Positions 2,612 to 17,741 of a DNA stretch of 30,209 nucleotides are shown piece after piece. Made by a program: the position numbers and the translations under genes. Numbering within the stretch: position 1 is the stretch's first letter; each line of letters starts with the position of its first letter. A model generated the notes under the pieces. It did no database searches. It saw only the letters and a program-made list of their open reading frames with translations, and was not told the DNA's origin. The DNA is from an uncultured bacterium (GTDB lineage Bacteria > Muiribacteriota > Ozemobacteria > Ozemobacterales > Ozemobacteraceae): assembly GCA_937949615.1 (NCBI GenBank), contig CALEDQ010000018.1, positions 140,161-170,369 on the forward strand, written 5' to 3'.

Positions 2612-2926
2612 ATGAACAAATGGATGGAATTTTCAAACGAATACACTCAGCTCATGAAAGACAATTTCCAGGTCATGACCAAATTCTGGCGCGCCAGCAT
2701 GGACCAGACCTCTGGCTACACCAAGAAGAACATGGAACTTTTCTTCGACCACATGAACCGCAATGTCGAATTCATGCACGAAATGTACAACAACACCGCT
2801 GCCTCGAACGAAGAGCTCAAAAAACTCTATCGCGAAAATATTGAAAAATTCAACACCCGCTTCCAGAAGGTTTATGAAGAAACCATCAAGGCCATGACTC
2901 CGAAGCACATGAACGCTGAAAAGTAA
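2612..2926 (+). CDS. Small phasin-like / PHA-granule-associated protein (tentative)
   Basis: A 104-aa ORF with a strong SD and strong promoter. The protein is hydrophilic, helical and Met/Phe/Tyr/Lys-rich, with an N-terminal W-x-x-F/W motif resembling the PhaE/phasin N-terminus. It sits immediately upstream of the phaB-phaC-phaE-phaC-phaA cluster. The assignment is by context and composition only. Confidence 0.5.
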   Translation: MNKWMEFSNEYTQLMKDNFQVMTKFWRASMDQTSGYTKKNMELFFDHMNRNVEFMHEMYNNTAASNEELKKLYRENIEKFNTRFQKVYEETIKAMTPKHMNAEK

Positions 2927-2943
2927 GGTCTGCAGCAAGCCAG

Positions 2944-2982
2944 GGGCCGTTCTGAACACGGCCAGTCCGCCAGGACGGCCCC
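2944..2982 (+). terminator. GC-rich hairpin downstream of the phasin-like gene (terminator-like; no clean U-tract)
   Basis: GGGGCCGTtCTG (2944-2955) pairs with CAGgACGGCCCC (2971-2982) around a 15-nt loop. Weak T-runs follow farther downstream (gcgttttt at about 3020). Confidence 0.35.
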
Positions 2983-3348
2983 GGTTGCAGACTTTGCAAA
3001 GCAGCAAAGCCGCGCCGCGTTTTTCCCCTGATCTGGAGCCTGAGACTGAAACTTGAAAAAGCAGGCCCGCCGCAAGTGAGAAATTTCACAATCGAGATTG
3101 ATCGCAAAGTAAAGTTGATCGCAAGCAGGGCGGTTCTGAGAAAAATTGCGGGGGCGCAGGGTGACAAAGTGGGCGGAAACGTAGAAGTTACAGGCAATTG
3201 CAGGATGAACGACAGAAGGGGCCGGAAACAACAGCAGACGGCCCGCAGGCGCAGGTGCCGCAGTTTTTATCGCGGCAATGCAGAAACAAGAATTTAATCG
3301 AAACGACTTAAAACAGCCGCCGAGAGGTGGCCAGACAGGAGAAACACA

Positions 3349-6703: not shown

Positions 6704-7888
6704 ATGACTGAAGTATTTATCGTTGGTGCAGCAAGAACCGCAATCGGCGCCCTCATGGGCACTCTCAAGGGCGTTCCCGCCCACAAACTGGGCAGCGTCG
6801 TCATCAAGGCCGCTCTCGAACGCGCCGGTGTGAAGCCCGATCAGATAGATGAAGTAATCATGGGTAACGTGCTGATGGCCGGTCAGGGCCAGGGTCCGGG
6901 CCGCCAGGCTGCCATGGGCGCCGGGATTCCCGAAACCGTTCCTGCCTGGGCAATCAACCAGCTTTGCGGTTCAGGTCTCAAAACCATCGCTCTCGCTGTT
7001 GACGCCATCAGAACCGGTGAGTCTCAGTGTATCGTCGCCGGCGGCATGGAAAGCATGAGCAGCGCCCCTCACCTCGCCAATCTGCGCAACGGCACCGCTC
7101 TCGGCAACGTAAATTTCATAGACTCGACCGTCTGGGACGGCCTGACCGACGTTTTCTCAGGCGAACACATGGGCATGACCGCTGAATGGCTTGCCGATGA
7201 ACTCAAAATCAGCCGCGAAGAAATGGACAAGTTCTCTGCTGAAAGCCAGAAACGCGTTGCCGATGCCTGGGAAGCCGGAAAATTCGATGACGAAATCGTT
7301 CCGGTCGAAATTCCGCAGCGCAAGGGCGACCCGATCATGTTCAAGAAAGACGAACATTTCCGCGTCGGTACAACTTTTGAAACCCTGAGCAAACTGAAGC
7401 CCGCCTTCAAAAAAGACGGCAGCGTCACCGCCGGTAACGCTTCAGGCATCAACGACGGCGCCGCCGCTGTTGTCGTCGCCTCAGCCGAATTTGTTAAAAA
7501 ACACAACCTTAAACCGATCGCCAGAATCGCCGCGCACGCGACCACTGGTCTGAATCCTTCAAGAATGGGTCTTGGCCCGGTTTCTGCAACGCAGAAAGCC
7601 CTTGCCAAAGCCGGCTGGAAAGTCAGCGATCTTGACCGCGTCGAAGCCAACGAAGCTTTCGCCGTTCAGTCGCTCGGCGTCATCAAACAGCTCGGTCTCG
7701 ACCCGGCAAAAACGAATGTCAACGGCGGAGCCATCGCTCTCGGTCACCCCATCGGTGCTTCCGGGGCCCGCGTGCTGGTAACGCTGCTGTATGAAATGAT
7801 GCGTGTAAACGCTGGCAAAGGCCTCGCTACCCTCTGTGTAGGCGGCGGCATGGGTGTTGCCATGGCAGTCGAACGCGTCAAGGCTTGA
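6704..7888 (+). CDS. phaA: Acetyl-CoA C-acetyltransferase (biosynthetic thiolase)
   Basis: 394 aa. Has the thiolase active-site Cys in NQLCGSGLK, the C-terminal [19 protein letters not shown] and [15 protein letters not shown] signatures. An AAGGAG SD lies 6 nt upstream. Confidence 0.9.
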
Positions 7889-7904
7889 TTCCTTTCCTTG
7901 CCTC

Positions 7905-7950
7905 TGTGCGGCGTCATTAACCGCACAGACCTTCCGGGCCTGGGGATTCT
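7905..7950 (+). terminator. Rho-independent terminator after phaA
   Basis: An imperfect GC stem (GAC..CCGGG / CCCGG..GTC) at about 7908-7943 is followed by T8 (7943-7950). Confidence 0.5.
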
Positions 7951-8175
7951 TTCCCGGGCTGTCTTTTTTTTAGAGCGATTCATTGATTGACCAATTAGCA
8001 ATTGCGCTTAACTGGTTATCTTTTTAAGGGGCAGCTTCGGCCTATCAGCCGGGTTGCTTTTTCTTCAGCGATTCGCTTCGCTCACAAGCTTCCGAAAAAG
8101 CAATCCCGTCTTCTCGCCTCGCAATTTTGTAATTGAGGATCTCTATATTTAACCAAAGAGTTGTTACTTTTTAGC

Positions 8176-8232
8176 TTGACTTTAAATTCATGTTAAATAG
8201 TTTAATATTAAAGTATTTAATTTTGAATCGAG
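8176..8232 (+). promoter_or_regulatory. AT-rich promoter region with overlapping palindromes upstream of the MarR gene (candidate MarR operator)
   Basis: TTGACT at 8176. TTAAAtagTTTAA (8193-8205) and the perfect 10-bp palindrome TTAATATTAA (8202-8211) lie directly upstream of the MarR-family gene. MarR proteins typically autoregulate via palindromes in their own promoter. Confidence 0.4.
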
Positions 8233-8244
8233 TTGAACTTAAAA

Positions 8245-8712
8245 ATGAGTACTCACTACAAAGGCACAAAGGAAGAGGTCAGCGCCCTCGACTGCTTTAT
8301 CAAGCTGCTGCGCGCCTCTGAATCGGTCAATGCCGCCGCAGTGAGGCAGATTCAGTCATATGGTCTGACCGAAAGCCAGTTCGGGGTTCTTGAAGCACTG
8401 CTGCATCTCGGCACCCTCAATCAGAACCAGCTGGCCGGCAAGATTCTCAAAAGCGGCGGCAATATCACGCTGGTCATCGACAACCTGCTCAAGCACGGGC
8501 TGGTCGTCAAAGAAAAACGCAGTGATGACCGCCGCTGCTACTGGATCAGCCTCAGCGCCCGCGGGAAAGAACTTATCAGCCGAATTTTTCCGGAACATGT
8601 TAGAATAATTACCGGGAGATTTGCGGCACTTAATTCAGAAGAACAAAAACAGCTGGCGATGCTCTGCCGCAAACTGGGTACCGCCGCAAAAAATCAGGAG
8701 GAAGAAAAATGA
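8245..8712 (+). CDS. MarR-family transcriptional regulator
   Basis: A winged-HTH MarR pattern (LTESQFGVLEALLHLGTLNQNQLAGKILKSGGNITLVIDNLLKHGLVVKEKRSDDRR). The track ORF begins at a TTG (8233). ATG at 8245 is preferred as the start, though no strong SD supports either. The stop overlaps the azoR start (ATGA). Confidence 0.75.
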   Translation: MSTHYKGTKEEVSALDCFIKLLRASESVNAAAVRQIQSYGLTESQFGVLEALLHLGTLNQNQLAGKILKSGGNITLVIDNLLKHGLVVKEKRSDDRRCYWISLSARGKELISRIFPEHVRIITGRFAALNSEEQKQLAMLCRKLGTAAKNQEEEK

Positions 8713-9335
8713 AAAAGGTACTTCACATTGTTGCCAGTCCGAGAGGTGCATCGTCTCGCACCCTGCGTATAGCAGATGCGTTGATAAAGAAAATCAGAAA
8801 GCAGTTTCCCAGTGCAGCAATCGACACGCTCGACGTTTTTGCTGAAAAGCTGCCCGAAATGAATATTACCCGCGTCAAAGGCAAATACATGCTGATGAGC
8901 GGCCAGGAACTCAGCGGTGATGCCGTCGCCGCCTGGGAAGAAATCAAAGCCCACATTGCCCGTTTTCTCGCTGCCGATATCATCGTCATCTCGACCCCGA
9001 TGTGGAACTTCGGTATTCCCTACCGGCTGAAACACTACATTGACGTGGTCTGGCAGCCCGGTTTCATGTTCAAATACACCGAAAACGGCCCCGTCGGCCT
9101 CGCTGCCGGCCGCAAGGTCTTCGTCGTGTCGACCCGCGGCGGCGATTACACACCAGGCACCCCGGCTGAACCCTACGACCAGATCACGCCCTACCTCAAA
9201 ACCGTTCTCGGCTGGGCCGGCATCACTGACCCGACCTTCATCAGCGGCCAGCCAATGGATGCCAACACCGAAGACGGCCGCGAAGCCAAAATCAAAGAAG
9301 CCATCGCCAGCATCGACTCTCTCGCCCTCGCCTGA
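8709..9335 (+). CDS. azoR: FMN-dependent NADH-azoreductase / flavodoxin-like NAD(P)H quinone oxidoreductase (AzoR/AcpD family)
   Basis: 208 aa. Has the N-terminal MKKVLHIVASPRG, the PMWNFGIPYRLKHYIDVV motif and GQPMD. A strong AGGAGG SD lies 7 nt upstream. A MarR-plus-azoreductase pairing is common. Confidence 0.8.
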   Translation: MKKVLHIVASPRGASSRTLRIADALIKKIRKQFPSAAIDTLDVFAEKLPEMNITRVKGKYMLMSGQELSGDAVAAWEEIKAHIARFLAADIIVISTPMWNFGIPYRLKHYIDVVWQPGFMFKYTENGPVGLAAGRKVFVVSTRGGDYTPGTPAEPYDQITPYLKTVLGWAGITDPTFISGQPMDANTEDGREAKIKEAIASIDSLALA

Positions 9336-9349
9336 TCTCTAAAGAAAAC

Positions 9350-9390
9350 CCGGGTATGCCATCAACCGACGGCATACCCGGTTCTTTTAT
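9350..9390 (+). terminator. Rho-independent terminator after azoR
   Basis: A perfect 11-bp stem CCGGGTATGCC (9350-9360) / GGCATACCCGG (9371-9381) with a 10-nt loop, followed by TTCTTTTAT. Confidence 0.7.
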
Positions 9391-9463
9391 CAAGGCAGAC
9401 AGATCAAGGAATCTGCCACTGCTGATTTTGCGAATGTGAAGGCCGCTGCCACAACTGGGCTTG

Positions 9464-10306
9464 ATGTGCTATCATAATGAAGATCAGAACCTAAAGACGG
9501 GGCATGAGCGTCGAAACTTAAAAATTTTCTCTGCCAGACAAATTGCAGGATTGATGGGAGAAATGATTACGGATAAATACCACGCACAATTGCAGGAATC
9601 AGTCAAAGATGAAGTCTTATTCAAGCTTTTGAAAGCTTTCGTAAAGGCTGTTTATTTTTTGCTTCTGATGATTCTTATCGTTCCGGCCGGCTTATTAGCA
9701 ATCATTGCAACTGTTTTTGCTTATCCTATTTTGCTTTATGGTGGCTTGCTAGGTGGTATCTGGACCTTTCTTATAGCTTTGCTTCTTCCGCCGGTTTTTA
9801 TCGTGCTGGTGGTTCCTTTGCTGGTTTGTATCGCACCATTTTTTCTGATCTATGGAGCTTTTACCGGAGATATTTGGCCAGATTCAAAGCCGGAAGAACC
9901 AGATCCGAAGGCGCAAAAAATTGCCGAGCAGGTTGAGGCTTTCAACGTCAAATGGGAGCTGATTAAAGACTTGCCTCCGTTCCAGTTGTCAGATGAAGCC
10001 GCCAGAAATTTTGAGATGGCCAGAGACAAGCTTAAGGGTTCAACCTCTGAGTTCGCCGACAATTGCCCCGGAGAAGGCAAGTATCTGTTAGGAATCGCGG
10101 CCGATTACATCAAAGATGAGGGCGAGTTTGGCAGAGAACTCGTAGAACTTATAGATATGGCTATCGTGCATTCCTTTAACTATAACGAAGGAGAATCACA
10201 ATCTGCCTTGCATAAAATGATCTGGGATTGCGCCAGACTCATTACGCTACGACTCGAAAGCGTGGAGCCGAAAACCGGCATTCAAAAACTTTCTTTCGAC
10301 AGGTGA
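9464..10306 (+). CDS. Hypothetical membrane protein (about 4 TM helices plus a soluble acidic C-terminal domain), no recognisable family
   Basis: A long ORF with a hydrophobic core (LLLMILIVPAGLLAIIATVFAYPILLYGGLLGGIWTFLIALLLPPVFIVLVVPLLVCIAPFFLIYGAF) followed by a roughly 140-aa hydrophilic tail. GC content is visibly lower than in the flanks. The start is uncertain: a TTG at 9461 and ATGs at 9464, 9554 and 9563 are possible, and none has a good SD. Confidence 0.5.
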   Translation: MCYHNEDQNLKTGHERRNLKIFSARQIAGLMGEMITDKYHAQLQESVKDEVLFKLLKAFVKAVYFLLLMILIVPAGLLAIIATVFAYPILLYGGLLGGIWTFLIALLLPPVFIVLVVPLLVCIAPFFLIYGAFTGDIWPDSKPEEPDPKAQKIAEQVEAFNVKWELIKDLPPFQLSDEAARNFEMARDKLKGSTSEFADNCPGEGKYLLGIAADYIKDEGEFGRELVELIDMAIVHSFNYNEGESQSALHKMIWDCARLITLRLESVEPKTGIQKLSFDR

Positions 10307-10343
10307 TAATATTACCGCATTACTCCTGCAGGTTTGCGAACTC

Positions 10344-10366
10344 ACCGGAAGTCTCCGGTTATTTAA
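10344..10366 (+). terminator. Short hairpin terminator between the convergent membrane-protein and radC genes
   Basis: ACCGGA agtc TCCGGT (10344-10359) followed by TATTTAA. Confidence 0.35.
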
Positions 10367-11024
10367 GGCGCCCTGATTCAAGAAAGCTGAAGTAATCTGT
10401 TTTATTGAAAATAATATGGTCAAGCAGGTGAAGCCCGATTATATCGCCCGCACCCTTGAGTTGCGCGGTAATGTCGATATCGGCCACCGAAGGTTCGAGG
10501 CTGCCGGCAGGGTGGTTGTGAGCAACGATTATCGCCGATGCCCTGTCGGTCAGGGCGTCAGCAAAAACCTCGCGCGGATGCACCGGAGCGCGGTCAATCA
10601 GCCCGATCGAAACAACTCTGATGTTTAAAATTTCATTGGCACCGTTGATGCTGGCGCATAAAAAATGTTCCTGCTTCCGGTCGGCGTAATGCCTGATATG
10701 GGGTAAAAGATCAGCTGGGGTCGTAATTCTAGCGCCCTCTGGCTTGATGCGGCGGCGGGCAAATTCAAGCGCAGCGATTATCAGTGCCGATTTCGCATCG
10801 CCGACACCGGCAAACTCCTGCAGATCCTGGGTTTGAACGCCAAGACCTTTTGCATCGATGACCTTCACAAGTCTGGCAGCCAGCTGCAGCACATCCATGC
10901 CAGGGGTGCCCTTACCGAGCAGTATCGCCAGCAGTTCCTGGTCGCTCAGAGCGGCTGCACCTTTTCGAAGAAGCTTTTCGCGCGGGCGATCTTCCTGTGG
11001 AATGTCTCGGATATTCTCTCTCAT
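10359..11024 (-). CDS. radC: RadC-like JAB/MPN-domain protein (UPF0758)
   Basis: 221 aa. Has the N-terminal HhH-like region (REKLLRKGAAALSDQELLAILLGKG) and a JAMM core with E...HNHPAG...S...D (IIVAHNHPAGSLEPSVAD). Its start lies 4 nt downstream of the hsdR-fragment stop, so the two are probably translationally coupled. Confidence 0.8.
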   Translation of the reverse strand: MRENIRDIPQEDRPREKLLRKGAAALSDQELLAILLGKGTPGMDVLQLAARLVKVIDAKGLGVQTQDLQEFAGVGDAKSALIIAALEFARRRIKPEGARITTPADLLPHIRHYADRKQEHFLCASINGANEILNIRVVSIGLIDRAPVHPREVFADALTDRASAIIVAHNHPAGSLEPSVADIDITAQLKGAGDIIGLHLLDHIIFNKTDYFSFLESGRLK

Positions 11025-11028
11025 GGTT

Positions 11029-12887
11029 TCATGCCGCCTGCAGATGTGTTTGAATAACGGTTATGGCCATAATATCAAAAATGCCTCCCTGATCGGTATA
11101 TTTTGGGTCAGCCAGTTCGTCATAACGGCCCAGATCTGTATAACAGACCTGTATTTCGCCGTTCACCTGGCCACGGTATGCCCCTTCAAGGAAATGGTGA
11201 TCTTCGCGATGAACGATGACGGTTGCCCGTATCGACTGGTCGGCAATTTTGGTTTCCATCACTTCTTTGATCTTAATAGCTTCTGTATCGCTTATAGGAA
11301 ATTTACCTTTGATTTCATCAATCATTTCCTGTACCGAAACCTTTTTAATCGGCGCACCCGAGCCTTTTTTCCCACCGCCGGCCTTCAGCTTTACAGTGCC
11401 GGAAACAGCTTTAACCACGCCAAGATGTTCGACCGAAGCTTTAATAACCTCTGTGTGGCGAATCTGCTGCATCAGTTCAGAAATGGTGCCCTGCTTGATC
11501 AGCTGAGGACCAACCAGCTCGGCAAAGGCAGCAAACTCACGTATTTCATCGTCAAGGGTCGCAAAGCAGGTTAAAAAATGAAAACTCTTTACCAGCCTGG
11601 CCAATAGATAAACAAATGATTTTCTTTCATCCGGAGTCGGCATTTTCGCCTGAAAACGCACACGGAGGCCATTGACCAGATACTGCACCTGCGCATCTGT
11701 GCCGGCAGTCGCCGTCGTTATGAAATCACGGGCGTCGGCCTGCGTGAAGATGCCAAACGAAAGAATTTTGTCGAGAATCTGCCGGCAGAGATCGGGATCT
11801 GGCAGGTCTGGCTCAAAAGGCGTGCCTTTGCGGTATTTTGCAAACGCTTTCATGATGGCTGCAGCATTATTGGTAAAATCAACGACCAGAACTTCGCTTT
11901 TTCCTTTATGACAGCGGTTAAGGCGCGAAACAGTCTGAACGGCGTTGCGGCCAGAAACGACCTTATCGAGAAACATGCCGGCAAGCAATGGCTGATCAAA
12001 ACCGGTCTGAAATTTGTTGGCAACTACCATGATCCGGTAATCATCGCCTTCGAAGCGGTCCTCTATCAATTCGCCGTCATTCAGGCCATTTATCGCATGC
12101 TCACTTATCGCGACATTTGTTTCAGGGTGTACAAAATCAGAAAAAGCGTAGAGAGCTTTGTAAGCAGCACCCTTTTCTTTAAGCTTTTCTCTGATGATGT
12201 CGAAGTAACGCAGCCCGGCGATTCGTGAAGTTGTAACGATCATGGCCTTGGCCCGCCCACCGATAAGTGGCTTGACGTCGTTTTCGAAAATTCGCAGCAT
12301 GACTTCGGCTTTATATTGAATCAGCCCTTCATCCTGATAGGCCACGTTCTGCAACGCTTTGGCAACCACACCTTTGGGATAAAATTTTTCGTCGGTATCT
12401 TTCGGAATAACCGGGCAGTGCAGATTATACAGGGTTTTATAAGAAATGATGCTCGCGGCCACATCGACGATATAGCCCTCGGCAATGGCTTCAGCTTCGC
12501 TGTAAGTGTCGAACGTGGCCCCGAAAAGGCTTACCGTGGCAGGGGCGGGCGTTGCGGTAAAAGCTACGAACAGCTGATTGCGGTCATGTTCTTTGATGAT
12601 CTGTGCAATCTTTTCTTCTTCTTCAATTTCATTTTGCCCGGTATCATCAGTATCGGCTTCATCGGGTTTGCGAAAGGGCACGCGGATCGCGGCGCCCATG
12701 CGGCCTTCCTGAGAACGGTGCGCCTCATCGATCAAAAATGCAACCCGAAGCTTCTTTAATTCTGGCTGTTTTTCGAGCTGTTCGAGCACCCAGACGAATT
12801 TCTGCTGGGTAGTGACGACAATCGGCCGACGTTTTTTCAAAAAAAGAGGCAGATCGTCTGCTTTGCGTGCCAGACCGACCAGGTCTT
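11029..12887 (-). pseudogene. hsdR: Type I restriction enzyme R subunit (HsdR), C-terminal about 2/3 only: helicase motifs I-VI and a DUF3387-like C-terminal domain; the N-terminal nuclease domain is absent
   Basis: The 603-aa ORF has IVVTTQQKF, FLIDEAHRSQ (motif II), FTATP (III), DTYS..AIAEGY, VVANKFQTGFDQPLL (V) and AVQTVSRLNR (VI). The track start is a TTG. Extending the same frame upstream to the nearest stop (12887) adds GTGKTCLKDLVGLARKADDLPLFLKK, which is the Walker A motif I. Only about 23 aa separate motif I from the IVVTT block, so motif Ia is missing. There is no room for the roughly 300-400 aa nuclease domain. Confidence 0.65.
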
Positions 12888-13121
12888 TCAGACAAGTTTT
12901 GCCAGTTCCTCATCGGTAATGTTCGGCCTTTTGCCTCTAACTTCGGCAGCTTTTTCTTCGCGCCATTTGATCAATACACATTCGAGGCGACGAATGACAA
13001 TTATGGGCAGAATAACACCCTGGTATTCATAGGATTTGAACTTGCCGCGCAGCCTTTCGGCAGATTTCCAGATGTCAGAGGTGAGGTTGTCGAGTTTCGG
13101 TTTGTTGAGAGCGAGCGACAT
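12888..13121 (-). pseudogene. hsdM: Type I R-M methyltransferase subunit (HsdM) N-terminal fragment (HsdM_N-like), truncated after about 77 aa
   Basis: MSLALNKPKLDNLTSDIWKSAERLRGKFKSYEYQGVILPIIVIRRLECVL matches the conserved HsdM N-terminal helix (W-x2-A-x2-LRG...EY...ILP...LRRLECVL). A GAGAGG SD lies 9 nt upstream of this ATG; the track start at 13169 is farther upstream. The ORF stops at 12888 and overlaps, in another frame, the GTGKT of the hsdR fragment. No hsdS or MTase catalytic domain is present. Confidence 0.55.
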
Positions 13122-13373
13122 TGGCGAATTCCTCTCGTTTGCTGCGTCATTCAGATGCTGCACAAGCATTATGTTTACAACTTAACAGTTAAAGTTTATC
13201 TACCACAGCAAAATTAGTCAACAATTGAAACCGCAGAGTTCAATATGAGTTGGCATTCAAAGCACATTTGCCGACAAATCCGCAGGAGGGTAGAAACTCC
13301 ATCTATCGGACAGAGAATATGAAACTCTGGCTATAATCCAAAATCTCAGTTGGTCACTCAAGCGTTGCATAAA

Positions 13374-13414
13374 AGAGATATTTTGCTGACAAATATCTCT
13401 TTTTTTGGTATATT
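13374..13414 (+). promoter_or_regulatory. Perfect 10-bp inverted repeat plus T-tract overlapping the -35/-10 of the toxin-antitoxin promoter (candidate autoregulatory operator and upstream transcriptional insulator)
   Basis: AGAGATATTT (13374-13383) and AAATATCTCT (13391-13400) are exact reverse complements with a 7-nt loop, followed by T6. The -35 CTGACA (13386-13391) lies in the loop and right arm. A 17-nt spacer leads to the -10 TATATT (13409-13414). The toxin ATG is at 13444. Confidence 0.55.
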
Positions 13415-13443
13415 TATTATAGGAACTGCTGAAAGGGCTGCAA

Positions 13444-13731
13444 ATGCCGGTAAAGATTCAACCGCTCAATAAAAAGCTTACAGCGGGCTTAACTCGACTG
13501 CCGAAGCGGGTCGTCGATTCTCTTTACGCACTGATGACCATGATTGAATTGATGGGGCCGGTGCGCGGTGACTGGCCGAACTACAGCAAACTGGCAAAAG
13601 GTGTTCATCACTGTCACCTCAAAAAAGGCAACCCGACCTACGTAGCAGTCTGGAAAGAATGTGCCGATGGCTCTGTCGAAGTTCTTTACGTTGGCACTCA
13701 CGAAAAGGTTGATTACAAAAGGTTTTCTTAA
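13444..13731 (+). CDS. RelE/ParE-superfamily toxin (HigB/YafQ-like mRNA interferase)
   Basis: 95 aa. GDWPNYSKLAKGVHHCHLKKGNPTYVAVWKECADGSVEVLYVGTHEKV fits the RelE/YafQ pattern G-x-W...CH-[IL]...[DP]...L[IV]Y......[VL]..[VL]..G[ST]H. The toxin-first order matches HigBA-type modules. Confidence 0.7.
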   Translation: MPVKIQPLNKKLTAGLTRLPKRVVDSLYALMTMIELMGPVRGDWPNYSKLAKGVHHCHLKKGNPTYVAVWKECADGSVEVLYVGTHEKVDYKRFS

Positions 13732-13757
13732 GCTGGCTGTCCAGCAAGGAGCGTTGT

Positions 13758-14096
13758 ATGTTGCATACTGACAAGAAAAGCGAAAAGGTAGCGGTCTGCT
13801 TTCAGGTGCCGGTTGACAAGCTTGAAGATATCAAGCGCATTGTTGCCTGCCTCGGCGGCAATGAAGCCGAAGCATCGACAGAAAACTGGCGCGACAGCTT
13901 CCCTGAAAGGCACCCCGGCATCGTTTTGCGCGGTCTGCGAACCCGTGACGACCTCACGCAGGCTGAACTTGCAAAAAAAACCGGTATGCTCCAGAGCCAC
14001 ATTTCCGAAATGGAAAACGGCAGTCGCTCTATCGGCAAAACCATTGCCAAAAAGTTCGCGCAGGTATTCAACACCGATTACAAGGTTTTCTTATAA
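13758..14096 (+). CDS. XRE-family HTH antitoxin (HigA-like)
   Basis: 112 aa. The C-terminal HTH is LTQAELAKKTGMLQSHISEMENGSRSIGKTIAKKFAQVF. A strong AAGGAG SD lies 6 nt upstream. It sits immediately downstream of the RelE-like toxin. Confidence 0.7.
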   Translation: MLHTDKKSEKVAVCFQVPVDKLEDIKRIVACLGGNEAEASTENWRDSFPERHPGIVLRGLRTRDDLTQAELAKKTGMLQSHISEMENGSRSIGKTIAKKFAQVFNTDYKVFL

Positions 14097-14163
14097 ATAC
14101 CATCAACCTGAATGTGTCTGCCAACGCACAGGAACTAGAACAGTTCCGCGAACATTCACCGAG

Positions 14164-14964
14164 TTAAAAAACAGCTTCCCATAATTTCAGCAGATGCTGG
14201 CGGGTCTGCATGAGAATATCCGGCGGATCCGGCCACTGTTCCATGACGACCGAGCCTGAGAAATTCCGCATTTTGAGAATCTTTACGAGATGGCAGAGTT
14301 TTGCCTCGTCGCCATTACGAAAAGCATGAAACAGAGGCAGATGACTGTCGGCATTACCATGGTTGCAGTGTGCGTGCCAGTGAATAATCGGTACATGTGA
14401 CGCGAGACGCTCAACATATTCCGGATAATTTTCCCGCGTTGCCGGAAATATATTGGCATGGCCCATGTCGAGACATAACCCGAACCTGTCACTGCCAGCG
14501 TTCTCTGCTAAAAGAGAAAAAACAGCATTTATGCTTTCCGGGGAAGTCGCCGGAGTGTTCTCGCAGCTGATTCTGACCCCGGCACGACCGGCAGGCTCCG
14601 CCAGCTTCATTACCGCCGCTGCATATATTTCCGGTGGATAATCAAACAGGTGGATATTTACCAGAGCGGCCCCGATATCACCGGCAAACTCGATGCTGCG
14701 AAGAATTGCCTGCTCCCCTTCCGCTGTTGTCGGATCTGCTGTCCAGGGGGCGTGCACGCTGAACCTGATGTTTTTTTCGAGACCAGTATTTTTTATCGCA
14801 AGGCGTTTTCCAGCATCGAAATCATTTTCATTCCAGCCGAAAGGGCCAGGATCGCTGAACCATTCAAACGCGTCGAAACCCTTGTCAACCGCAAATTCGA
14901 AAGTGACATTGGGAGAAATCCGACAACAGGTCTGATTTCCGATGCGGATAAAGTTTTTGTTCAC
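14164..14964 (-). CDS. Sugar phosphate isomerase/epimerase (xylose-isomerase-like TIM barrel, AP endonuclease family 2 fold)
   Basis: 266 aa. Has metal-ligand-like motifs typical of the family (FEW, HAP, E...D...H spacing) and WHAHCNHGNADSHLP. GTG start with a GAAAGG SD. Confidence 0.65.
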   Translation of the reverse strand: MNKNFIRIGNQTCCRISPNVTFEFAVDKGFDAFEWFSDPGPFGWNENDFDAGKRLAIKNTGLEKNIRFSVHAPWTADPTTAEGEQAILRSIEFAGDIGAALVNIHLFDYPPEIYAAAVMKLAEPAGRAGVRISCENTPATSPESINAVFSLLAENAGSDRFGLCLDMGHANIFPATRENYPEYVERLASHVPIIHWHAHCNHGNADSHLPLFHAFRNGDEAKLCHLVKILKMRNFSGSVVMEQWPDPPDILMQTRQHLLKLWEAVF

Positions 14965-15041
14965 AGCAGATGCCTTTCTCAGACTGACGAAGTTCAGACC
15001 TAAACCGTGCAGAGGTAATAACGGACGGGCAAGTTTAATTA

Positions 15042-17741
15042 TCAGTAAGACTGGTTTTCAACGGGGAGGTAGAGGCGCATGATGCGGCAGGAAGTGGCGA
15101 GCCAGAGATTGCTCTGGTCGAAAAGCAGGTAGTGCACGCCGGGGCGTGACAGGCGTTCCCATTTTTTGCCATCGTAGAGCATGACACAGCTGCCACTTAT
15201 CGCGGGGTTGATGACGCGCAGTCGATAGGGACTGTCGCTGCCCCTTTTGATCATGGGCGGTACATCTGAGGATTTGAAGAACTTCTGTTCCAGCGAGAAT
15301 TTTTCGTCGCAGGCGACGGCAATGACGAACGGGTATTTCGCGTCGTCAGGGGCGGCCGCCACTGAAGTTATGCGGTTCGAATCGAAACCTTCGATCTTCG
15401 TCGGAACATCGCGAATAATAAGCTCTGGAGTGATATAGAGCAGCCCGCTCATGGCGCCGAGCCAGAGACGGTTGAAGCGGTCGGCCGCCATGCTGGTGTA
15501 GCGACGCTTCGGCACGTCGATGCGGGTGACCTGCTGGCCGTCGTAAATGGTCAGGCCTTCTTCCTGGAGAATGGCGACAACTCTGCCGGTTGCGGTTTCC
15601 CAGTTGCAGCAGTCGATGATGTCGGTAGTGACAGCGAGTTCCTTGTTTTCGAGACCGACCTCGACGCGTTTCCAGTTTTCGGGTGTGATGGTTGCCGGGT
15701 CGAGCAGATGCGCCCGCGGTAATATAAACAGCCCCGAGGCTTTGGTTCCGATTGCGATATCGCCGCCCAGCTTCTTGACGCACAGCAGCTTTTCATCTTT
15801 CGGCCATGGCAACTGACCTTCATCGATCTGGGTCCATTCGTGGCCGAGCTCAGCGCCCCAGTGCATACCAATACTGGTGTAGGCGGTCGTACTGTTGAGC
15901 ACCGCCAGATTCTTTGCATCAAAAATCATCCAGACACGCTCGTCGAAATCGAGGTCGTAATCGGTTATCTGCCCTCTGATGATCGGGTGCAGCGGCGCCC
16001 GCACCAGCTGACTGCGAATAGTGTAAAGCTGACGACCGTCGCGGGTAAAACGCCCGTTTGGGGTGCTGATTACCGGGTGAATACGATAGGGCGGCGATGC
16101 AGTGCCGTTAACTCCAGCAGTTGCCGAAGCAGCCACGGCAAGAGCGTTGTTGATCTGCTGCGGCGTCACGCTGCTTACCGAACCTGCTTCGATCAGCGCC
16201 TGATTTGCCGGCCCGATGAGCAGGCGCTGGTCGAGCGTCGAATAGATATGGTCGACGGTATCGGGCGGCAGGTCTGGCGGGCCCTCGACGCAGTAGTGAT
16301 GCCACTGACTTTCGCCATGACCTGGCATCGGGCGACTTCGAGCCACGGTGTTGTCTTCGATCTGAAGGTTTTTGACCGGGTCATTTTCGGGGTTTTCATA
16401 GCGACCGGCGAGTTTCTGGTTCATGCCGAGAATGCCAAGCATCGCCGCCGAAGGAAAAGCGTAACGCGACAGTCCGCGTTCATGCGAGATCCAGAGGTCT
16501 TTGCCCTGAATGATCTTGAAATACGAGATAAACGGCTCGACCGGATAGTCGTGCTGACTCGGGTAACCGTAGATATACGGCCCCCAGTGCAGCATGAACG
16601 GCCAGAAAGTTTTGGCATACGACGGGTTGCTGCCACGGTATTGAAACTCGTCATACTGGTATTCGTCGGTGATTCCGAGCATGGTGACGCCCGCATCGCT
16701 GAGCACGGCGATTTTCTTGACCGCAGCGAGGTAATAGACACGATTGATGTTGTCTGAGGGCAAGGGGCTGTCGTTGGTGGTAAAGTTGTACCAGCGGCCC
16801 TCTTCGAACTTCCAGAGGCCGCGCCCCTGAGTGCCGACCCACAAAATTCTTTTGCCAAGCAGGTCGGCGAGCAAAGCATCATCTTTGCTCATTTTCTGTT
16901 TGATGACATCGGTTTCTTCGTCGGGGCTGACGGCAATGCTGGTGATCCAGAGATCGGGGGCGGGCAGTTTCGTAACTCCGACCAGACCGCCGTTCTGAAT
17001 CAGGTTCAGCTTGTCCTGGGTGACAGCGATGATATTGTTCGACTTGCCCTGCGACAGGCCCTGAAAATCGTTAACCCAGTCGCTCCCGAGCTCGACGACC
17101 TGCTGTCCATCGTCGGCACGCAGCAGCCCTTTCCCTTTCGTCGAATAAATGCCGCCGCCCGGGTAATCCATGGCCATCGCGGTGATGCCGACCGAAATGA
17201 TGCGGTGCTGCTCTTCGCTGCCCATGCCCATCGAGTTGACCGGCAGAAAGTTGCCACCGCCGGCCTTCTGAAAGATCGTCGATTTAAAAAGCCAGCCGCC
17301 GAAGCAGCCGACATAAAGCGTGTTGTCGACAATCTGCAGCACTTCGGTGTCGATGGTCGACAGGCCCTGCTCGGTGCCAAAATGCACGAAAGTCATGGGC
17401 CTTTCAGGGAAATCTTCAAGATCGATACAGAACAGTCCGGCGGGCGTCGCGGCCCAGATGTTGCCCCAGGCGTCAAAGTCGATCGACCTGACTGCCATGT
17501 CTTTGAGCGGTTCCAGGTGATTGCCGATGTCAAACCAGTTCGCCTGATCTTCGAGAAACAGGCCGATGCCGCGGTCGGTACCCACGGCGAGGCGGCCTTT
17601 GGCGATGGCCATGCAGATCGCATTATTGCCGGGAAGCCCCGAGCGCTGGTTCCAGGTCACCCAGGTCTGCGCGGCCGAAAGCATGCCAGCAGTCGTAAGC
17701 AGCAACCATAAAATGAAAAGCTTCAGGACGTTTCTTTTCAT
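15042..17741 (-). CDS. Secreted 899-aa beta-propeller protein with two-component-regulator-propeller-like repeats; no kinase or effector domain
   Basis: Has the signal peptide MKRNVLKLFILWLLLTTAGMLSAAQ. The N-terminal region has repeated GxW..T..GL blades (WGNIWAATPAGLFCIDL, NTLYVGCFGGWLF, RILWVGTQGRGLWKF). The long C-terminal region has no recognised motifs. A GAGGA SD lies 7 nt upstream. Confidence 0.7.
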   Translation of the reverse strand: MKRNVLKLFILWLLLTTAGMLSAAQTWVTWNQRSGLPGNNAICMAIAKGRLAVGTDRGIGLFLEDQANWFDIGNHLEPLKDMAVRSIDFDAWGNIWAATPAGLFCIDLEDFPERPMTFVHFGTEQGLSTIDTEVLQIVDNTLYVGCFGGWLFKSTIFQKAGGGNFLPVNSMGMGSEEQHRIISVGITAMAMDYPGGGIYSTKGKGLLRADDGQQVVELGSDWVNDFQGLSQGKSNNIIAVTQDKLNLIQNGGLVGVTKLPAPDLWITSIAVSPDEETDVIKQKMSKDDALLADLLGKRILWVGTQGRGLWKFEEGRWYNFTTNDSPLPSDNINRVYYLAAVKKIAVLSDAGVTMLGITDEYQYDEFQYRGSNPSYAKTFWPFMLHWGPYIYGYPSQHDYPVEPFISYFKIIQGKDLWISHERGLSRYAFPSAAMLGILGMNQKLAGRYENPENDPVKNLQIEDNTVARSRPMPGHGESQWHHYCVEGPPDLPPDTVDHIYSTLDQRLLIGPANQALIEAGSVSSVTPQQINNALAVAASATAGVNGTASPPYRIHPVISTPNGRFTRDGRQLYTIRSQLVRAPLHPIIRGQITDYDLDFDERVWMIFDAKNLAVLNSTTAYTSIGMHWGAELGHEWTQIDEGQLPWPKDEKLLCVKKLGGDIAIGTKASGLFILPRAHLLDPATITPENWKRVEVGLENKELAVTTDIIDCCNWETATGRVVAILQEEGLTIYDGQQVTRIDVPKRRYTSMAADRFNRLWLGAMSGLLYITPELIIRDVPTKIEGFDSNRITSVAAAPDDAKYPFVIAVACDEKFSLEQKFFKSSDVPPMIKRGSDSPYRLRVINPAISGSCVMLYDGKKWERLSRPGVHYLLFDQSNLWLATSCRIMRLYLPVENQSY

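Follow-up and report, generated by a model that had tools for sequence, protein, structure and literature searches.

Natural inactivation of type I restriction-modification (R-M) systems has been described before, in Staphylococcus aureus JSNZ through deletion of hsdR (PMC12554148) and in group A streptococci through a phage insertion (PMC8597746). The locus described here, located in a window of 30,209 nucleotides (the whole stretch of DNA analysed) from an uncultured bacterium, is an ordinary pseudogenised type I R-M locus. As in those two cases, a single structural mutation has affected a system that is intact in other strains; unlike in them, the deletion spans three genes and joins an hsdM stub to an hsdR tail, and the loss of methylation and restriction is deduced from sequence. 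Both fragments in the window are unambiguous homologues of the canonical system (TIGR00348; EcoR124I HsdR, PDB 2W00 and 4BEB), although they are mutually out of frame and encode no functional subunit, and intact type I versions occupy the same chromosomal site, with 92% amino-acid identity (P0001) or approximately 95-96% nucleotide identity (L017 and L021). Stand-alone SF2/SWI2-SNF2 helicases have the DEAH box and the second RecA-like domain in common with the hsdR remnant, whereas the remnant lacks motifs I and Ia, is colinear with HsdR residues 355-974 and does not contain two complete RecA-like domains plus a P-loop. It is very probable that a canonical hsdM-hsdS-hsdR(-radC) operon lost its function in place through one recent, illegitimate deletion of ~4.3 kb. 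The features of the locus are the following:

10359..11024, minus strand: radC, intact, 221 aa (Pfam RadC, E=3.9e-37)
11029..12891, minus strand: hsdR remnant, codons 355-974 plus stop
11239..11316, minus strand: divergent patch of ~75 nt, hsdR codons ~880-903
12891..12892, minus strand: deletion junction (12892, last hsdM-derived base; 12891, first hsdR-derived base)
12888..13121, minus strand: hsdM stub, codons 1-77 of a 658-codon hsdM, then TGA (12890-12888)
12895..12909, minus strand: spurious GTGKT (the hsdR-frame reading of hsdM codons ...EELAKL...)
13193..13221, minus strand: promoter-like TTGACT-17-TAAACT site 5' to the hsdM stub (consensus scan only)

The stub ORF has a Pfam HsdM_N hit (E=1.2e-10) covering positions 1-53 of the 135 in the profile, and 75 of its 77 residues are identical to the HsdM N-termini of the intact loci L001 and L007, which bears out the 77-aa HsdM N-terminus on the minus strand, with a stop at 12888, of the original prediction. 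Counted from another ATG further upstream, at 13169, the ORF has 93 aa (12888-13169, minus strand) and is HsdM-like as well by its HsdM_N match, but the true start is likely to be the ATG at 13121, giving the 77 aa also chosen by gene callers on identical contigs. According to the alignment to relatives, 13269-12892 (minus strand) comprises the hsdM promoter region and codons 1-77. Within it, the promoter-like site falls in a stretch conserved with L001 and may be a retained promoter-like site of the operon, with a presumed function.

On the other side of the junction, the hsdR remnant retains motif Ib (IVVTTQQKF), motif II (DEAH, 12729-12718) and the remaining motifs up to VI, together with the second RecA-like domain and the helical and C-terminal domains, and its 620 codons without a stop agree with the more than 600 open codons initially reported. 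It is colinear with residues 355-974 of the 974-aa P0001, ~95% identical in nucleotides to the intact L021 (beginning exactly at 12891) and 88% identical to L001 and L007. Its first canonical start, a TTG at 12840, gives a 603-aa ORF (11029-12840, minus strand) that matches positions 344-670 of the 674 in TIGR00348 with a bit score of 98.5 (cut-off 284.55); among Pfam profiles, SWI2_SNF2 (positions 91-188 of 221) and T1R_D3-like domains are found, and the ResIII match begins at position 98 of 164. This ORF is, in consequence of the domain search, HsdR-derived and not a complete non-HsdR helicase. Annotators call a shorter, 556-aa product from an internal ATG at 12699, preceded at 4 nt by an SD-like AGGAAGG. 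A terminator-like hairpin at 12861-12849 is at chance level (4 found, 4.4 expected). The ORFs of 77/93 aa and 556/603 aa both deserve pseudogene flags as fragments of one deleted operon, which otherwise risks being mis-annotated as a small HsdM-like protein plus a helicase.

The absence of hsdS and of the nuclease domain, already noticed from the letters, was corroborated by the ORF list and the Pfam search, in which neither hsdS nor the HSDR_N and N6_Mtase domains appear at the locus, and no ORF with Methylase_S target-recognition domains lies between the stub and the remnant. N6_Mtase spans residues 165-470 of the intact sister HsdM, of which only codons 1-77 are left; hsdS falls entirely within the deleted interval; and HSDR_N, which covers residues 131-199 in P0001 and 123-199 in the HsdR of L017, precedes residue 355, where the remnant begins. 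In the intact HsdR, the true motif I reads AGSGKT (residues 301-306, opposite GSGKT of EcoR124I HsdR in the alignment) and the true motif Ia TDRKAL (residues 336-341), and both lie within the deleted part. Since the deletion took these motifs as well as the nuclease domain, the hsdR fragment that is left is predicted to be incapable of ATPase activity.

Where, then, does the GTGKT string come from? The letters, preceded in the hsdR frame by a TGA stop, are real, as originally described, but their identification as HsdR motif I did not hold: they lie on the hsdM side (12909-12895), upstream of the junction at 12892|12891, and L001 has GADKT in the same frame. Judged by frame and position, GTGKT is out-of-frame hsdM DNA and not a Walker A motif, and no P-loop was found in the hsdR-derived sequence of the window. 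The stub does not abut motif I, as had been proposed, since the hsdR breakpoint is past motif Ia, at codon 354/355. Similarly, of the gap of ~23 aa between motifs I and Ib, the absence of motif Ia was confirmed, while the short spacing is illusory, because GTGKT is not the HsdR motif I and the true motifs I and Ia are deleted. As a caution on method, out-of-frame coding DNA can yield a perfect-looking Walker A string, which here misled an argument based on motif spacing.

Comparison with syntenic loci in relatives revealed the intact operon, hsdM(658 aa)-hsdS(441)-hsdR(974)-radC, in sister strains in the same genomic context; these strains are probably Candidatus Rifleibacterium, an assignment based on the names attached to a neighbouring cluster of 899-aa proteins. 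L001 and L007 carry, in order, the 899-aa gene, hsdM(658), a small ORF or YhcG, hsdS, hsdR(974) and radC, whereas L017 and L021, which together represent a closer sister lineage, have an HTH gene, hsdM(658), hsdS(441), hsdR(974), radC, a 280-aa ORF and a flavodoxin gene, with N6_Mtase, Methylase_S and HSDR_N all found by Pfam (hsdS encodes 441 aa in L017 and L021, and 436 aa in L001). That close relatives carry an intact hsdR orthologue at this locus marks the remnant as an HsdR pseudogene by descent. Furthermore, in L011-L016, the closest loci by flanking genes, the whole block including radC is missing, with 61 bp in place of window positions 13326-10275, and the side of the R-M genes on which a toxin-antitoxin module lies varies between strains. 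The island has a lower GC content than the rest of the window (0.483 vs 0.524), so that the low-GC islet of the original prediction exists, but the contrast is only modest. Overall, the locus illustrates cleanly, on a small scale, how a defence system can be present in some strains and absent from others within a hypervariable island of an uncultured lineage.

The former operon ends with radC (NCBIfam PRK00024, 195.8 bits, cut-off 180), which shows zero nonsynonymous changes on the window branch. It starts 4 nt past the hsdR stop, as it does in L001, L007 and L021; the proposed coupling of the hsdR remnant to radC concerns genes that are tightly spaced but do not overlap. Transcription of radC would continue from the retained hsd promoter region. 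As to whether radC is a conserved partner of the HsdR family, this was rejected, as the distant L018 (Candidatus Manganitrophus), L019 and L020 have hsdM-hsdS-hsdR without radC.

The exact breakpoints were mapped by blastn and hand alignments to 12892|12891, with 0-1 nt of microhomology, and all four intact references (L001, L007, L017 and L021) lead to the same breakpoints. On the hsdM side, L017 and the window are identical over 69 of 69 nt up to the junction and unrelated beyond it; from 12891/12892 on, the window corresponds to hsdR codon 355 through radC. The missing sequence amounts to 4,329 bp relative to L017, the closest intact relative, 4,247 bp relative to L001 and 5,045 bp relative to L007. 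No repeats were seen by eye in the alignments at the deletion ends or at the borders of the 3-kb block. Together with the intact syntenic loci, this base-level mapping directly bears out the core reading as a collapsed hsdM-hsdS-hsdR operon, which is correct; one or two deletions had been envisaged, and a single one accounts for the locus, with no second lesion. Two other arrangements were discarded. For a programmed -1 frameshift joining the stub and the hsdR tail, there is no X XXY YYZ heptamer in the overlap (12909-12891), and the deletion explains the arrangement; for a family of fused HsdM_N-helicase genes with a frameshift, all full-length homologues begin with HSDR_N and not with HsdM_N, and the fact that hsdM and hsdR are separate genes in the intact neighbours also counts against it.

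The proposed history is a single deletion from hsdM codon 77 to hsdR codon 354, in which the methyltransferase catalytic domain, the small ORF, all of hsdS, the PD-(D/E)xK nuclease domain of HsdR and SF2 motifs I and Ia were lost. Across the join the registers of hsdM and hsdR differ by one base; the HsdM stub accordingly terminates at a TGA (12890-12888) made by the junction itself, and the 620 leftover hsdR codons form an orphan reading frame devoid of Walker A. Neither fragment should be able to methylate, recognise, translocate or cut DNA, and the strain is therefore likely to be without the restriction and modification by this system that its sister strains keep. No evidence contradicting the deletion itself was found.

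Of the two alternatives initially considered for the long open frame, very recent decay is favoured. The dN/dS of the hsdR remnant against L001 is 0.082, like that of the flanking genes (0.02-0.09); once polarised by 84 outgroups, 13 amino-acid changes fall on the window lineage and 15 on that of L001; and the 620 hsdR codons contain neither a stop nor a frameshift, although 3.4% of point mutations would introduce a stop codon. On the branch that follows the divergence from L021, 27 codon changes are synonymous and only 11 nonsynonymous, the latter against a neutral expectation of ~90. The substitution patterns of the remnant hence show no measurable neutral decay, and by this measure the deletion is evolutionarily very recent; the long frame would survive because of this recency and not because of selection. 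An open frame is also expected under selection for the product, and the 556-aa product could be made from the ATG at 12699.

The window branch carries 11 nonsynonymous changes, vs 1 on the sister branch (Fisher p=0.02), an excess that is a point against a purely neutral relic and that could reflect early relaxation. Seven of the 11, however, fall within the 75-nt patch, so most of the excess looks like one clustered patch resembling recombination. With 28 nt differences from the sister strain over a background of ~4%, this patch turns the family-invariant DEEALYIKQV into DTEAIKIKEV, and we read it as a short tract left by recombination or gene conversion. A search of viral contigs yielded no donor, and among the fetched homologues the patch motif is absent except from the window's own product (P0002, P0121).

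Could selection be keeping the truncated HsdR fragment (half of RecA1, RecA2, the helical domain and the C-terminal domain), either because it serves another type I system of the genome as a scaffold or decoy without catalytic activity, or because its translation is needed to express radC? The 620 open codons and the low overall dN/dS are compatible with it, as are the SD-like sequence before the internal ATG, the proximity of a strongly constrained radC and the retention of the promoter-like region. Nevertheless, this explanation is very unlikely: the low dN/dS is fully explained by the functional time before the deletion, the post-split branch being short; the partners HsdM and HsdS are lost, as are Walker A and motif Ia, without which there is no ATPase; the absence of the whole block from L011-L016 implies that it is dispensable; the truncated form turned up only in a single group of nearly clonal contigs (identity of 100% or 99.98% in the part that they share); and a family-invariant C-terminal motif has been overwritten. 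The earlier idea of a nuclease-less helicase retained for another role is weakened accordingly, as the Walker A needed for ATP hydrolysis is also missing. In its most specific form, a motor-dead HsdR tail (residues ~402-974, from the ATG at 12699) would be expressed from the hsd promoter and selected, either as a translational leader for radC or as a dominant-negative or decoy partner of another type I methyltransferase complex of the cell, an idea that we regard as highly improbable and that, if true, would turn the relic into a domesticated restriction-subunit fragment.

There is little room, and still less than for selection, for an assembly or sequencing artefact (a chimeric join or a collapsed contig) masking an intact operon. 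These are metagenome assemblies, the window's contig has ~10x coverage going by its name, and in the same island L008 is identical to L007 for 16,970 bases and then departs from it abruptly, a switch that a mis-join could explain. Yet the identical junction string recurs in L002-L006 (samples ERZ724087, ERZ724082, SRR3330202, SRR3330204 and SRR3330206), and two independent pipelines (ENA and Logan assemblies) recovered it, with the 556-aa product on 16 contigs from at least five samples, all of which may stem from one study or population. There is, moreover, no breakpoint repeat to mislead an assembler, and both flanks are collinear with relatives, so that the assembly error once suspected at the junction is improbable. 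Neither the exact 45-nt junction nor a 30-nt string from the hsdM side has a match in the species-representative genomes; the single JGI metagenome match to this 30-mer, a query that would match the deletion allele too, has an intact hsdM. What can be read directly from the data are the breakpoints, the lost domains, the reproducibility across assemblies and the absence of accumulated damage.

Finally, that the block arrived already truncated by horizontal transfer or recombination, as the highly mosaic island, the differing side of the toxin-antitoxin module and the lack of any R-M block in L011-L016 might suggest, is scarcely credible, given that the left context (HTH/TA to hsdM) is common to the window and L017 and the right one (radC, 280-aa ORF, flavodoxin) to the window and L021, both at ~92-96% identity, that no donor element with the same truncated junction was found in species-representative genomes, and that in-place deletion within the sister-lineage arrangement is the simplest history. 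Whether by transfer or in place, the lesion is the same single deletion.

A type I R-M operon has undergone ordinary, recent pseudogenisation in this locus through one deletion, whose junction lies at 12892|12891 and around which the following minus-strand features are found (the ORFs according to the ORF listing):

13221-13193, minus strand: promoter-like TTGACT-17-TAAACT, retained upstream of the hsdM stub
12888-13169, minus strand: 93-aa ORF, the hsdM stub; Pfam HsdM_N, E=1.2e-10, profile positions 1-53 of 135
11029-12840, minus strand: 603-aa ORF, the hsdR remnant; Pfam and NCBIfam matches
11316-11239, minus strand: divergent patch of ~75 nt (hsdR codons ~880-903), with 28 nt differences from L021, a locus of the close sister lineage
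10359-11024, minus strand: 221-aa ORF, RadC by Pfam and NCBIfam

The domain assignments of the original prediction, namely an HsdM-like short ORF and an HsdR-like long one, are upheld. The long ORF matches SWI2_SNF2 (profile positions 91-188 of 221), ResIII (98-162 of 164) and T1R_D3-like in Pfam, and positions 344-670 of the 674 of the NCBIfam hsdR model TIGR00348 with 98.5 bits, far under the full-length cut-off of 284.55. In the three-frame translation, the hsdM frame reads MSLALNKPKLDNLTSDIWKSAERLRGKF...ITDEELAKLV up to a TGA at 12890-12888 made of the first hsdR-derived bases, so that translation of the stub stops after exactly 77 residues and does not run on into a fusion protein. The hsdR frame shows a TGA followed by GTGKTCLKDLVGLARKADDLPLFLKKRRPIVVTTQQKF... 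and is open as far as 11029; its first canonical start, the TTG at 12840, lacks an obvious SD, and the internal ATG at 12699, preceded by AGGAAGG, is the start picked by gene callers.

Homologues of the 603-aa product number in the thousands, and almost all have ~975 aa and the architecture HSDR_N + ResIII/SWI2_SNF2 + T1R_D3-like; a family of fused HsdM_N-helicase genes was rejected, since HsdM_N starts none of these homologues. The intact HsdR P0001 (974 aa) is 92% identical across the whole 603-aa query, while P0002 (556 aa, 100% identity) is the same truncated gene according to other annotators and occurs on 16 contigs. P0001 is encoded on L001, where the order is the 899-aa gene, hsdM (658 aa), a 48-aa ORF, hsdS (436), hsdR (974) and radC, with flavodoxin, MarR, thiolase and PHA synthase genes farther along, as also flank the locus in the window. 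The same order is found at the related locus L007, where hsdM and hsdS are separated by a YhcG/DUF1016 gene. Clustering at 90% identity places the 899-aa neighbour with proteins that, where named, nearly all come from "Candidatus Rifleibacterium sp.", the likely organism here.

By blastn against L001, window 13269-12892 corresponds to 2823-3200 (the hsdM upstream region and the first 77 codons) and window 12892-10364 to 7448-9976 (hsdR codon 354/355 through radC), and L007 gives identical window breakpoints. In a hand alignment, the hsdM match ends with ...AAACTTGT and the hsdR match begins with CTGAAAGACC..., with at most one T common to both. The locus before the deletion is reconstructed from the close sister lineage. 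A 30-mer taken from the hsdM side matched one JGI metagenome contig, L017, where 69 nt 100% identical to the window run on into an intact hsdM (658 aa; N6_Mtase), and which also carries hsdS (441 aa; Methylase_S) and hsdR (HSDR_N + SWI2_SNF2). L021, reached via a radC variant 99.5% identical to that of the window, carries hsdS, hsdR (974), radC, a 280-aa ORF and, farther on, flavodoxin; its overlap with L017 is 99.6% identical, and its match to the window, at 95%, begins exactly at 12891. The window is thus without 4,329 bp of L017 (2177-6505), corresponding to 4,247 bp in L001 and 5,045 bp in L007. This is a single deletion whose ends share 0-1 nt of microhomology, and hence a case of illegitimate recombination. 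The collapse of an hsdM-hsdS-hsdR operon had been correctly foreseen, and the option of two deletions raised with it finds no support. An artefactual junction is unlikely: each of the five loci fetched for P0002 (ENA ERZ724087 and ERZ724082; Logan SRR3330202, SRR3330204 and SRR3330206) contains the junction string and, where it overlaps the window, agrees with it at 100% save one SNP in L006 at 9978, and no repeat able to cause a mis-join was found at the breakpoints.

The GTGKT read in the original prediction as the Walker A box of HsdR is not one. Its codons (12909-12895) lie upstream of the junction and are therefore hsdM DNA, reading E-E-L-A-K-L in the hsdM frame, and the same nucleotides of L001 give GADKT in the hsdR frame. 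In the intact HsdR, motif I is AGSGKT (residues 301-306) and motif Ia TDRKAL (336-341), both aligning with those of EcoR124I HsdR (PDB 4BEB, 2W00); IVVTTQQKF (378-386) is motif Ib and DEAH (409-412; window 12729-12718) motif II. With this, the odd 23-residue spacing from motif I to Ib vanishes. Since the breakpoint falls after H354, beyond motifs I and Ia, the remnant has neither the nuclease domain, as had been predicted, nor the ATP-binding P-loop.

The length of the open frame had been ascribed either to very recent decay or to retention of the helicase for another role. Over the 620 surviving codons, pairwise dN/dS against L001 or L007 is 0.082-0.083 (dS ~0.55), inside the range of the flanking genes (radC 0.035; the 899-aa gene 0.06-0.07; four others 0.02-0.09). 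Polarised with 84 outgroup HsdR proteins, 13 amino-acid changes fall to the window lineage and 15 to that of L001, and neither stop nor frameshift occurs in the 1,860 nt of the remnant, where 3.4% of point mutations would create a stop. On the window branch, taking L021 as sister and L001 as outgroup, codon changes are synonymous in 27 cases and nonsynonymous in 11, versus 25 and 1 on the sister branch (Fisher p=0.02); neutrality along the whole branch would predict ~90 nonsynonymous changes, so that at most ~20% of this short branch can have been neutral. The low dN/dS, the few changes and the unbroken frame show that the deletion is recent, in line with the first option, and no further reason is required for the frame to look intact; retention as a helicase is not supported, given the loss of the P-loop. 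Seven of the 11 nonsynonymous changes fall in the divergent patch, set in a background divergence from L021 of ~4%, and without it the excess is 4 vs 1. In the patch, DTEAIKIKEV takes the place of DEEALYIKQV, from which the other family members fetched depart little or not at all (a few have IRQV), and the frame is kept. This is the pattern of a recombination tract, not of scattered decay, and resembles short gene conversion from a divergent hsdR donor.

HsdR is inactive without the M2S1 core of the type I enzyme, so a single event that takes away M and S together with the catalytic parts of R leaves no restriction-competent complex, which would fit with tolerance of the deletion. Type I systems are well known to be inactivated naturally by deletions or insertions; S. 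aureus JSNZ (PMC12554148), in which hsdR is deleted, and group A streptococci (PMC8597746), with a phage insertion, are examples.

In all the Rifleibacterium loci (window, L001, L007, L021), radC starts 4 nt after the hsdR stop, like a fourth operon gene; it is absent from the hsdM-hsdS-hsdR operons of distant HsdR-family members in other phyla (L018, L019). It is plausible that radC is still transcribed from the TTGACT-17-TAAACT candidate promoter. Just downstream of the junction there is a weak hairpin (GCAGA...TCTGC, 12849-12861, minus strand) and then a seven-T run, longer than that of L017 by a synonymous G-to-T change; hairpin-type sites in the region are no more frequent than by chance (4 found vs 4.4 expected). 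The hsdM-hsdS slot is variable, holding a 393-aa YhcG/DUF1016 nuclease-like gene (L007-L010, ~14845-16026) or a 48- or 68-aa ORF (L001 4944-5090; L021 505-711). L008 equals L007 at 100% over 16,970 nt and switches abruptly from ~16971, within hsdS, to a RecQ-containing region without hsdR or radC, reflecting either an independent hsdR loss in another strain or a chimeric assembly.

The locus sits within a hypervariable island from the 899-aa gene to the flavodoxin gene (window ~9399-15041), with a GC of 0.483 vs 0.524 in the rest of the window, so that the predicted low-GC islet is a modest one. Across the window, L001, L007, L011-L017 and L021, the island has hsdM-hsdS-hsdR-radC intact, has it in the deleted form or lacks R-M altogether, and strains also differ in AP_endonuc_2, PIN, HepT/MNT, Ank-repeat and 912-aa genes. 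A two-gene module (a 95-aa gene with no Pfam match, 13444-13731, and a 112-aa HTH_3/XRE gene, 13758-14096, both on the plus strand) behaves like a toxin-antitoxin cassette mobile within the island. In the window and in L017 (where most of the 95-aa gene is absent) this pair lies upstream of hsdM, and in L001, where R-M directly follows the 899-aa gene, it lies downstream of radC, a difference resembling a circular permutation. The whole R-M/radC block is missing from the strains nearest in their flanking genes (899-aa protein 98.7-99%): L011-L014 have 61 bp in place of window 13326-10275, and in L015 and L016 the pair is gone as well. An ORF at 9461-10306 (plus strand; 247-281 aa), with a hydrophobic middle part and no significant Pfam match, is kept beside radC or the pair in L011, L012 and L021, at a length of 237-280 aa.
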